Source: Escherichia phage HY03. Taken from it: a stretch of 64,000 nucleotides of DNA. The DNA lies in sequence record NC_031047.1; one strand, 5' to 3'. Made by a program: the position numbers and the translations under genes. Shown piece after piece: positions 56,865-58,157 of the stretch; position 1 is the stretch's first letter; each line of letters opens with the position of its first letter. The notes below the pieces were generated by a model. It saw only the letters and a list, made by a program, of their open reading frames with translations. It ran no database searches and was not told where the DNA came from.

Positions 56865-56872
56865 TATAAATA
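56865..56872 (+). promoter_or_regulatory. late promoter TATAAATA upstream of rIII
   Basis: Exact TATAAATA immediately after the gene 31 stop. Confidence 0.55.
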
Positions 56873-57011
56873 ATAATATGAATTGGGTGTCGGAATAATA
56901 AGTTAACCGAACAATTCTACGTGGTAGTCTACAACTGAGAGATCTGTCGAAAGAAGATGAAATTCAGAAGAACGTGACTACCGAGTTTTAATCTCTAACG
57001 AGAATTTTTAA

Positions 57012-57260
57012 ATGATTAAACAACTACAACACGCTCTTGAACTGCAACGAAACGCATGGAATAATGGTCACGAAAACTATGGCGCATCTATTGATGTTGA
57101 AGCCGAAGCTCTTGAAATCCTGCGTTATTTCAAACATCTGAATCCTGCTCAAACTGCATTAGCTGCTGAGCTTCAGGAAAAAGATGAACTTAAATATGCT
57201 AAGCCTCTGGCTTCTGCTGCACGAAAAGCAGTTCGCCACTTTGTGGTAACACTGAAGTAA
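57012..57260 (+). CDS. rIII: rIII lysis inhibition accessory protein
   Basis: 82 aa; matches recalled T4 RIII. Confidence 0.9.
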   Translation: MIKQLQHALELQRNAWNNGHENYGASIDVEAEALEILRYFKHLNPAQTALAAELQEKDELKYAKPLASAARKAVRHFVVTLK

Positions 57261-57505
57261 TTCATTGGAGATTCACTGCCTTAGTGTGAGCTAAAATCGA
57301 GGAGCCGTCGAACTGTCTGATTAATGATTTGCGAATCATTATAGTTTTAAGACCCCGGCAGTTTTACGGTGTACCTCTTGAATGTGAATGATGACGGGTT
57401 TATGGTTATCCTGGTCGTTAAATATCCAAAAACCTATGTTCCCCTTGAGGGCTTGCGCAGGCAATGCCAATAAGTCCTGCATTTTCATTTAAAAGAGAAT
57501 TTATA

Positions 57506-57682
57506 ATGGCAAAACAAGCTAAAGCAAAGAAAGCAGTTGAAAAGAAAGTTGGTGATTCTAAACGCGCTGGTTACAAGCGTGGGTCGAACTCTCGTATCAA
57601 TCAAACTGTTGAGAAGATCATGCGCCGAGCACGTGCGGTTCTTCGAGATGATGCTTCTCGTTTTGGTAAGCAGAAAGCATAA
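57506..57682 (+). CDS. small basic protein (30.9 position)
   Basis: 58 aa from ATG 57506; the ORF-track frame allows an earlier ATG at 57464. Confidence 0.5.
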   Translation: MAKQAKAKKAVEKKVGDSKRAGYKRGSNSRINQTVEKIMRRARAVLRDDASRFGKQKA

Positions 57683-57686
57683 GTTG

Positions 57687-57714
57687 AGGACTCCTTCGGG
57701 AGTCCTTTTTTATT
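57687..57714 (+). terminator. Rho-independent terminator, same hairpin sequence as the soc terminator
   Basis: AGGACTCC-TTCG-GGAGTCCT plus TTTTTT; same 20-nt stem-loop as 2303..2322. Confidence 0.8.
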
Positions 57715-57735
57715 TTCCAAAGATTGCACAAAGTT

Positions 57736-57768
57736 GTTTACAGTACGGTTCCTTTGTGATAGTATTAT
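57736..57768 (+). promoter_or_regulatory. T4-type early promoter
   Basis: GTTTAC 57736..57741; -10 TAGTAT/TATTAT region 57760..57768. Confidence 0.6.
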
Positions 57769-57792: not shown

Positions 57793-58125
57793 ATGAAAAC
57801 GATTAATTTGAACGCTACAGTTAAAACTAAATGCTTCAATGGTAAATATGATGAAACTATGTGGTTCTTAATGGCAGTTGAAGGTGATATTATTGAAGTA
57901 GAAACAACAGAAGGTATGGGAACAGATTTCACCTTTACAATTCAAGTTCATAATTTCTTTACTGGTTGGATTTATGAATTGAATACAGTAATTGTTGGAA
58001 AAATTGAACAAAATGAATTAGGTGAATGGTATTATGTTACAGCGCGCCAACGCGCCGAACGCTTAATTGAGAAGATGAAAAAAGTTGGTAAACTTGACAT
58101 GCAGCACTGGAAAGTAGTAAAATAA
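57793..58125 (+). CDS. hypothetical protein (30.8 position)
   Basis: 110-aa ORF, SD AAGGAGAA. Confidence 0.5.
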   Translation: MKTINLNATVKTKCFNGKYDETMWFLMAVEGDIIEVETTEGMGTDFTFTIQVHNFFTGWIYELNTVIVGKIEQNELGEWYYVTARQRAERLIEKMKKVGKLDMQHWKVVK

Positions 58126-58127
58126 TT

Positions 58128-58157
58128 GTTTACTTTGGTACAGGATATGATATTATA
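58128..58157 (+). promoter_or_regulatory. T4-type early promoter
   Basis: GTTTAC 58128..58133, TATTAT 58151..58156. Confidence 0.6.

Follow-up and report, generated by a model that had tools for sequence, protein, structure and literature searches.

A modular structured RNA region in the rIII–30.9 spacer of T4-type phages and the horizontal mobility of its core hairpin

In T7-like phages, the RNase III hairpins (R1.1 and others) are long, irregular hairpins in the spacers of early and late mRNAs, and leave protective structured ends. The preQ1-I, SAM-II and guanidine-III aptamers are small H-type pseudoknots located upstream of a ribosome-binding site (RBS). Phage T4 possesses RNA devices of its own: a pseudoknot in the gene 32 leader serves gp32 autoregulation, a hairpin acts at gene 43, and sequestration of the Shine-Dalgarno sequence in a hairpin is established for e, soc, 49 and I-TevI (PMC3014915). 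T4 also makes two stable RNAs from its tRNA cluster, RNA C and RNA D (species 1 and 2), whose role is unknown; in the 2010 review of T4 post-transcriptional control that describes them, no riboswitch or trans-acting regulatory RNA had been characterized in this phage (PMC3014915). Finally, PeSLs (promoter-early stem-loops), which combine a terminator-like stem-loop with an early promoter, are mobile regulatory cassettes of T4-type phages (PMC2839356, PMC4122927). Here, we describe a new structured RNA region of T4-type phages, the spacer between rIII and 30.9, whose core hairpin (module B) is horizontally mobile.

The stretch analysed (hereafter, the window) comprises 64,000 nucleotides of Escherichia phage HY03 (NC_031047.1), a T4-type (Tequatrovirus) genome read in the early-gene direction. 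The local order is cd, 31.2, 31.1, 31, rIII, the gap, 30.9, a terminator hairpin, 30.8 and 30.7, with the following features around the gap.

57012–57260, + strand: rIII, the upstream gene, whose transcripts carry the spacer
57261–57505, + strand: rIII–30.9 spacer, 245 nt
57339–57488, − strand: open reading frame (ORF) of 49 codons, not a gene
57506–57682, + strand: gene 30.9, ATG at 57506, RBS inside hairpin F3 of the spacer
57686–57707, 3′ of 30.9: terminator hairpin, from the terminator scan
57686–57765, just past 30.9: PeSL-like unit (terminator plus early promoter)

A sequence-only reading of the window had singled out this gap as a long, G+C-richer non-coding stretch, and its position at 57261–57505 proved exact, with rIII ending at 57260 and the 30.9 ATG at 57506. 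Comparison with T4, which that reading had proposed, revealed an equivalent unannotated rIII–30.9 gap of 244 nt in NC_000866 (130541–130784). The spacer interval was matched in 769 phage records, with 644 matches covering 80% or more of it, and its conservation and covariation are far beyond chance. Its G+C content (0.404, the 88th percentile among 245-nt windows) exceeds that of the window (0.356) and of the 31–rIII spacer (0.327), but not that of the flanking genes (0.41–0.44). The perfect AATGATT-TGCG-AATCATT hairpin reported in it exists, but occupies 57323–57340, one base to the right of the 57322–57339 first given. Folding energy of the whole interval is near chance on either strand (z = −0.89 for + and −0.70 for −); since these values are not significant, energy alone would not have flagged the spacer. 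No RNA element was described for it in the literature searched, whose scope did not include Driukas and Nivinskas 2003 (Biologija), reportedly the only paper on rIII/30.9 expression.

Expression of rIII from early, middle and late promoters is documented (PMC9409239), and the first intrinsic terminator 3′ of rIII is the one at 57686–57707, past 30.9. The spacer should therefore be co-transcribed with rIII on the + strand. A promoter and terminator scan detected no terminator-like or sigma-70-like promoter site within 57261–57505; hairpin F2 (5 bp, 14-nt loop), which is followed by AUUUUCAUUU, is weak as a terminator or Hfq-type sRNA 3′ end. Like PeSLs, the spacer modules are short non-coding intergenic cassettes of T4-like phages that mark points of module shuffling. 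However, with no promoter-like or terminator-like site inside the gap the spacer is not a PeSL cassette. Modules B, D and E, moreover, exceed a PeSL in size and have conserved loops, and B crosses family boundaries.

Searches for known RNA families were negative. None of the 4227 models of Rfam 15 reached its gathering threshold in 57261–57505, and at E ≤ 10 just two chance-level matches appeared, scoring 14.5 and 16.6 bits where the thresholds are 41 and 100. The flanks and the relatives, including loci with module E, likewise gave no Rfam match at permissive cutoffs. ARAGORN detected no tRNA or tmRNA in the whole window, and Rfam no tRNA in the spacer; the tRNAs that adjoin B in phages muut, A73 and A5-4 are separate genes.

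Spacers between rIII and 30.9 were gathered from GenBank phages, IMG/VR and metagenomes, giving 54 distinct sequences of ~120–420 nt. The spacer is retained throughout enterobacterial Tevenvirinae. In a few distant relatives, rIII directly adjoins 30.9 (L094) or other genes lie between the two (L060). On the + strand, the HY03 spacer is composed of four modules, A, B, D and F, to which relatives add C, E and X. Among these relatives, modules are gained, lost and reordered.

T4-type genomes: A-B-D-F
T2: A-B-C-D-F
JS09 and Dhakavirus: B-C-D-F
teqdroes and S16: A-miniB-D-F
some Mosigvirus relatives: C-D-F only
Klebsiella phages: X-D-A-E-F

Module E, 150 nt long, is common in many Tequatrovirus, Klebsiella, Serratia and Enterobacter phages, and the constant part of the spacer is the D plus F leader. 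In JS09 and Dhakavirus, B directly follows the rIII stop codon. Read-through of the stop codon or frameshifting driven by B was considered and rejected, as the in-frame stretch past the stop is short and lacks conservation. The spacer is a modular RNA region of independently folding units, the stems of which are kept by compensatory change. Module B has the following parts.

57293–57385, + strand: module B, a 93-nt three-helix hairpin
57297–98/57380–81, + strand: helix P0
57299–57302/57374–57377, + strand: helix P1, GAGG/CCTC
internal loop of B: asymmetric, AG against TGTA (2 nt against 4 nt)
57305–57317/57357–57369, + strand: helix P2, with an invariant C·U mismatch beside an invariant G·U pair
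junction of B: conserved, CTGATTA ... TTATAGTTTTA ... CCMCGR
57322–57329/57334–57341, + strand: apical helix P3, loop TGCG

An alignment of 22 distinct copies of B was tested as a three-helix hairpin of 29 pairs. Standard pairing is found in 93% of cells, and 13 of the 29 pairs (33 cells) have changed on both sides, well above the 5.3 pairs and 6.7 cells of column shuffles, none of which (0/500) reached the observed values. Slid controls, with the partner shifted by 1–3 columns, gave at most three such pairs. RNAalifold, run with no supplied structure, returned the identical fold with 12 compensatory pairs, and the minimum free energy fold of the single sequence is again the same (−25.9 kcal/mol, z = −3.21, with 1 of 200 shuffles as good). 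The reverse strand folds worse (z = −1.9). The G·U pair of P2, which would become A·C on the opposite strand, is invariant in all 22 copies, and another P2 position shows G–C, G·U and A–U across the alignment, plus one A·C row. Moreover, P2 has a 2-bp insertion in each of its arms in the copies of A5-4 and Kuravirus. Compensatory changes, two-arm insertions, the invariant G·U pair and the strand asymmetry together indicate selection on a + strand RNA fold, and the fold of B is strongly supported. The corresponding covariance model (R1) scores 117.4 bits at the spacer, its sole copy in the 64-kb window, where the next best hit reaches 14. While the stems vary, B keeps the sequence of its loops and junctions (GAGCYGUCGAA, CUGAUUA, UUAUAGUUUUA and UUUUACRGUGUACC). 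The hairpin can lose its apical two thirds: teqdroes, S16 and Nieuwekanaalvirus EP335 carry a 49-nt ‘mini-B’ of ~15 pairs, consisting of P1, the AG/UGUA loop and P2.

The − strand ORF had been described as 46 codons long and lacking a Shine-Dalgarno sequence; the latter holds, but the ORF actually spans 49 codons. Some GenBank records annotate it, or an ORF that overlaps it, as a hypothetical protein, which speaks in favor of a small antisense gene. However, it is intact only in strict T4-type genomes: 1-nt indels shorten it to 18–26 codons with an altered tail in T2, teqdroes, JS09 and Dhakavirus relatives, no homologous start was found in more distant relatives, and the ORF annotated on that strand in A73 sits in another frame and encodes an unrelated peptide. 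The + strand had been said to contain no ORF with a plausible start, and although two 34-codon ORFs are in fact present there, neither they nor the − strand ORF keep a conserved reading frame or match any Pfam family. Substitutions preserve RNA pairs, not codons. The spacer is non-coding, and we consider an antisense gene the least credible of all the explanations weighed here. Scarcely more probable is a DNA-level or neutral feature, such as a decayed gene, a palindromic mobile repeat or a recombination scar devoid of RNA function. Module boundaries do resemble recombination joints, indels are frequent, and the muut copy, described below, entered via a 16-nt direct repeat. Yet the signs of selection on the + strand fold argue against such a feature, B and D occur in single copy per genome rather than as repeats, and no reading frame is conserved. 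A decayed gene remnant in particular is not supported, with stems under selection and modules retained in unrelated phages. Both explanations are effectively excluded. Taken together, the three readings first offered for the interval (structured RNA or leader, decayed remnant, antisense gene) are partly supported. It is the first that is supported: from genus to genus and from one phage family to another, all four modules hold their stems through compensatory changes, with G·U pairs that could form solely on the + strand.

What this RNA might do is suggested by its anatomy and context, from which we infer a cis mechanism. The reading we prefer, with about even confidence, is that the spacer is a transcribed, non-coding modular RNA of the + strand that forms the 3′ tail of rIII and the leader of 30.9, with modules acting in cis at the post-transcriptional level. 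B would be recognized by a factor that enterobacterial hosts share; the most plausible candidate is an endoribonuclease, or an RNA-binding protein, acting in the RNase III or RNase E pathway. In this way B would cut or insulate the polycistronic transcript, leaving protective structured ends. Such cutting or insulation is proposed to uncouple the fates of the upstream and downstream RNAs. B resembles the RNase III hairpins of T7-like phages in being irregular, in having an asymmetric internal loop and in lying in spacers of co-transcribed genes, and the 29 stacked pairs of P0–P3 provide the coaxial helix of about two turns expected of an RNase III site, where an internal loop often marks the cut. 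However, there is no similarity in sequence or by covariance model, and B is common to unrelated phage families, whereas the T7-like hairpins are found within one. In addition, mini-B, with its ~15 pairs, is shorter than typical substrates and short for RNase III, which weighs against this part of the cis model. Dependence on RegB, for which B contains a GGAG motif, was rejected as a general explanation, since the motif is kept in Kuravirus and Vequintavirinae but lost in S16. To our knowledge, RegB is not known outside T4-like phages.

Besides T4-like phages, B is present in three other coliphage groups, always in spacers and on the sense strand of the neighboring genes. The homologues in Kuravirus, Vequintavirinae and Justusliebigvirus score 80–115 bits with R1. 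In Kuravirus podophages, B lies in the 161-nt spacer between ORF23 and terL, directly ahead of an intrinsic terminator; it is present in about 28 of the 79 matching records, and phiEco32 lacks precisely B. In Vequintavirinae A73 and A5-4, a copy 82–84% identical heads the tRNA cluster, 10 nt (A73) or 70 nt (A5-4) upstream of an unusual first tRNA. A5-4 also retains D and the 11-mer AAGAGAATTTA from the ribosome-binding region of T4 30.9, which points to capture from a T4-like spacer. Its B copy is 16–18% diverged, with P2 kept via the paired 2-bp insertion. Because compensatory change has preserved the fold in the diverged copies of Kuravirus and Vequintavirinae, the structure has been selected outside the rIII/30.9 context as well. 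In Justusliebigvirus muut, arall and AV123, a 98% identical copy sits inside a tRNA cluster, between tRNA-Gly and tRNA-Gln, within a 332-nt insert in which the entire T4 spacer comes first and the final 80 nt of rIII second. The insert is bounded by a 16-nt direct repeat, the second copy of which runs into tRNA-Gln; such an insert with a short repeat is the signature of recent recombination from a T4-like phage via short homology. BLAST searches with B and D found no match in 5,426 complete E. coli genomes or 72,556 PLSDB plasmids. Pattern scans of GTDB and IMG/VR for B or D gave, apart from chance hits, only T4-like and Justusliebigvirus copies. R1 and R2, the covariance model of D, detected no extra copies in the 64-kb window or in the tRNA/rnaC/rnaD region of T4. 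B is present or absent within single genera. It is a portable cassette that has moved among four unrelated coliphage groups with its structure kept.

In the main rival of the cis model, host tRNA- and mRNA-processing enzymes would excise B, alone or together with A and D, as a stable, trans-acting sRNA. It would inhibit a host protein or an anti-phage defense system, or act on it as a decoy or sponge; the spacer would then be a small island of RNA genes. Several observations fit. B lies within the Justusliebigvirus tRNA cluster and leads that of Vequintavirinae, adjoining rnaD-like sequence; in Kuravirus a clean terminator comes immediately after it, as at the end of an sRNA gene; its stems covary while its loops and junctions hold their sequence, as those of a binding surface should; and its presence varies within genera across four coliphage groups, with none in E. 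coli chromosomes or plasmids. T4, moreover, already makes RNA C and RNA D (PMC3014915). B and these two are alike as phage-encoded structured RNAs, and B shares the A5-4 tRNA region with rnaD-like sequence. However, neither B nor D resembles them (R1 and R2 gave no match on the T4 tRNA region), and the T4 spacer is located 60 kb from the tRNA cluster that holds RNA C and RNA D. Further against the rival, the T4 spacer contains no promoter-like site, no convincing terminator follows B or D, and no target suggests itself. In muut, B arrived by a recent capture that brought along 80 nt from the rIII coding sequence, and its place in the tRNA cluster may therefore be a recombination accident. We regard a stable sRNA as possible but doubtful. 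The same tentative weight is given to its broader form, in which B, probably along with its companions A and D and with modules C, E and X of the relatives, would make up a portable, phage-only RNA family that is released from the transcript and acts in trans on a host factor or anti-phage defense. Nonetheless, the conserved loops and junctions of B and its placement beside tRNAs and rnaD-like sequence in two phage groups are no less compatible with a stand-alone stable RNA than with the cis model.

The remaining HY03 modules flank B: A lies upstream, and D and F lead into 30.9.

57261–57292, + strand: module A, stem TCAC (57273–57276)/GTGA (57286–57289), conserved 9-nt loop TGCCTTAGT
57385–57441, + strand: module D, a probable H-type pseudoknot
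57393–57398/57410–57416, + strand: stem S1 of D, GACGGG/CCTGGTC
57404–57407/57431–57434, + strand: stem S2 of D, GGTT/AACC, with a short extension
third loop of D: A-rich, GTTAAATATCCAAAA
57442–57505, + strand: module F, the 30.9 leader, three small hairpins
57441–57451, + strand: F1, a small G+C hairpin, CCC(C)/GGG
57457–57461/57476–57480, + strand: F2, GCAGG/CCTGC
57481–57486/57495–57500, + strand: F3, ATTTTC/GAGAAT, holding the Shine-Dalgarno-like GAGAA, 6 nt before the ATG at 57506

Module A is present in T4, T2 and S16, is rearranged in T4-like phages of Klebsiella, Yersinia and Enterobacter, and is absent from JS09 and Dhakavirus. In its alignment (A8), 94% of cells pair, compared with at most 71% in slid controls, and two of the four pairs show compensatory changes (CG/UA/AU and GC/AU). 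D is the most widely kept module, found in all enterobacterial Tevenvirinae spacers examined, in the Vequintavirinae phage A5-4 and also in muut. R2 scores 67.9 bits at its single copy in the window. The outer pairs of S1 covary, each with three pair types (AU/UA/GC and CG/GC/UA), and 17 cells have changed on both sides. The GGUU in the S1 loop and the AACC past the A-rich tract probably pair, forming an H-type pseudoknot. In three lineages, S2 is lengthened to 9 bp by differing sequences (TTCAAGGTT/AATCTTGGG, TTGGTAGTT/AACTGCTAA and TTGTTGGTT/AACCAACGG). We rate the pseudoknot as probable rather than proven because the S2 core is nearly invariant and the 9-bp extensions are only marginally better than shuffles (30–62 per 1000 for each).

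In F, per-lineage RNAfold predictions give three equivalent hairpins built from different sequences. F2 is GCAGG/CCUGC, GAACUGG/CCAGUUC, GGGAGC/GCUCCC, GGAAC/GUUCC or GAGAGGU/ACCUCUC depending on the lineage, and F3 is AUUUUC/GAGAAU in T4-type genomes and UCUCC/GGAAGA elsewhere. D and F, the latter with its sequestered Shine-Dalgarno sequence, precede 30.9 in all the enterobacterial Tevenvirinae spacers examined, whatever other modules are present. Under the cis model, D and F would set the level of 30.9 translation, a role suggested by F3, which holds the Shine-Dalgarno sequence in a hairpin. Two points tell against it: folding energy lends F little support (z = 0.1), with a variable F3 sequence, and D accompanies B into A5-4, where 30.9 is absent. 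The latter indicates that D is not strictly tied to 30.9. As with the T4 operators and inhibitory leaders, a T4 gene is immediately preceded here by a pseudoknot in its leader (D) and by a hairpin in which the Shine-Dalgarno sequence is hidden (F3). Unlike the inhibitory leaders, the spacer has no late promoter within F3 that would free the RBS, and D also occurs away from 30.9.

The product of 30.9 is a very basic protein of 58 amino acids that belongs to phrog_1427; its PHROGs matches are families of unknown function only, and Pfam gave no credible match. Among the 40 records listed of 1004 that match, homologues of 30.9 occur only in T4-like phages. For this reason, a link between B and gp30.9 was considered and set aside.

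D followed by F also presents the arrangement of a riboswitch or protein-responsive leader: across relatives, a conserved aptamer-like fold directly precedes what could be the expression platform of one and the same gene. In a narrower variant of the cis model, D would be the aptamer and F the platform of a riboswitch or gp30.9 operator that switches 30.9 translation, with A and B as add-ons. The constancy of D and F before 30.9 is what such a sensing leader would predict, as is the sequestration of the Shine-Dalgarno sequence by F3 in all lineages through different sequences. A small, very basic gp30.9 would suit an operator, and autoregulation by gp32 via its leader pseudoknot offers a T4 precedent (PMC3014915). 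The topology of D matches that of small H-type pseudoknot aptamers: a short stem, a loop pairing with an A-rich 3′ tail, and a position upstream of an RBS. In contrast to those aptamers, D matches no Rfam riboswitch model even at E = 10 and has no regulon. It occurs only once in the window, and no metabolic function of 30.9 suggests a ligand. Inspection identified no mutually exclusive pairing between D and F, and the retention of D in A5-4, away from 30.9, again argues against sensing on behalf of this gene. We therefore consider a sensing leader unlikely, and less probable than a stable sRNA.

T4 is the reference phage and the best studied, yet this 245-nt stretch has stood unannotated in its type of genome. 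It now contains a covariation-supported RNA fold that lacks an Rfam counterpart and is defined to the base. The candidate functional RNA is testable: its stems are defined well enough to be disrupted and repaired, deletion variants exist in nature, and there are three further genomic contexts to compare. Any annotation that places ORFs across the spacer would need correcting. The finding bears on how large virulent phages control the fate of their RNAs, and on whether phages trade structured RNAs as accessory functions. If the trans-acting family were to prove real, its members would be the first new functional T4 RNAs since RNA C and RNA D, and would be RNAs exchanged between unrelated virulent coliphages in the manner of anti-defense genes.

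Many T4-like phages (Tequatrovirus and phages of Klebsiella, Serratia and Enterobacter) carry an additional element, module E, inserted between modules B and D of the rIII–30.9 spacer. The window is without it, the corresponding insertion point lying between 57386 and 57387. E and the further optional modules C and X were located in loci from relatives as follows:

L005 ~430-580, L015 ~555-705, L102 and L103: module E, 150 nt, between B and D
L006 (T2), L011 (JS09) and L012/L013 (Dhakavirus): module C, ~45 nt, TACTATCAYGCGTCAGAAAAGGTTATCTGT...
L015 and L104 (Klebsiella and Yersinia phages): module X, a hairpin

The sequence of module E (ATAGCGGCAAGTGCATGCTACC...CAACAGATAAGAG) has no match in Rfam. 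RNAalifold analysis of eight sequences predicted a fold of 46 pairs, 11 of them with compensatory changes; E is apparently a second, uncharacterized structured RNA of this locus. The stem of X also covaries (CCATG/CATGG versus CTTTG/CAAAG) around a conserved TGTACG loop. The tetranucleotide GUAC is repeated in the internal loop of B, the loop of X and module E, and stands directly 5′ of F1, the first hairpin of the 30.9 leader, in T2, teqdroes, S16 and most other non-T4-type spacers, whereas T4-type genomes have GTTC at this position.

Both sides of the rIII–30.9 region hold further elements in the window:

56865-57011: spacer between 31 and rIII
56865-56872: late-promoter-like TATAAATA at the start of that spacer
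56923-56929 / 56976-56982: long stem GGTAGTC/GACTACC, after the late-promoter-like sequence
57686-57765: terminator hairpin followed by early-promoter-like TTTACA-17-TAGTAT, 3′ of 30.9
58094-58156: similar promoter-like sites, before 30.7

In the relative's locus L019, the 31–rIII stem reads GGTGGAC/GTCCACC, a compensatory change from that of the window. The spacer probably serves the late transcript of rIII as a structured leader. The last two elements are PeSL-type cassettes (terminator-like stem-loop plus early promoter) of the kind described for T4-type phages. The gene 30.9 product is a small basic protein; in the GenBank records MZ502379, OL310488, PP658200, LR597660 and NC_054945, it or spacer-crossing ORFs are labeled "1,4-alpha-glucan (glycogen) branching enzyme, GH-13-type". 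This label is evidently erroneous and is being passed on from record to record.

Material of this locus was also found in other phage families, together with RNA genes:

L008 (muut, Justusliebigvirus) 2469-2816: T4-like insert, 332 nt, at the 5′ end of tRNA-Gln
L010 (A5-4) 2666-2744 and L004 (A73) 2606-2684, both Vequintavirinae: tRNA-like gene of unusual form, immediately following B/D
L010 (A5-4) ~2845-2945: sequence related to T4 RNA D, compared with T4 rnaD (L106 2054-2172)

The muut insert comprises, in permuted order, the rIII–30.9 spacer and the 3′-terminal 80 nt of rIII, flanked by a 16-nt direct repeat, TA(G/A)TTTATTGGAGATT. It is a clean case of exchange between phage families through very short homology, possibly by way of a circular intermediate.

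The Rfam tRNA model gives 35.8 bits for the tRNA-like gene of A5-4 and A73, which ARAGORN does not detect; its anticodon loop is CUUCUAA (UCU), its D region is short and its variable region long. Directly 3′ of tRNA-Met, A5-4 carries a clear relative of T4 RNA D (GGGTCGCT.CCG.TAAGTCGTCGGACTGATG...ATCACAGCAGAAACGGCGCACC). T4-like and rV5-like phages thus also share stable RNAs whose function is unknown.
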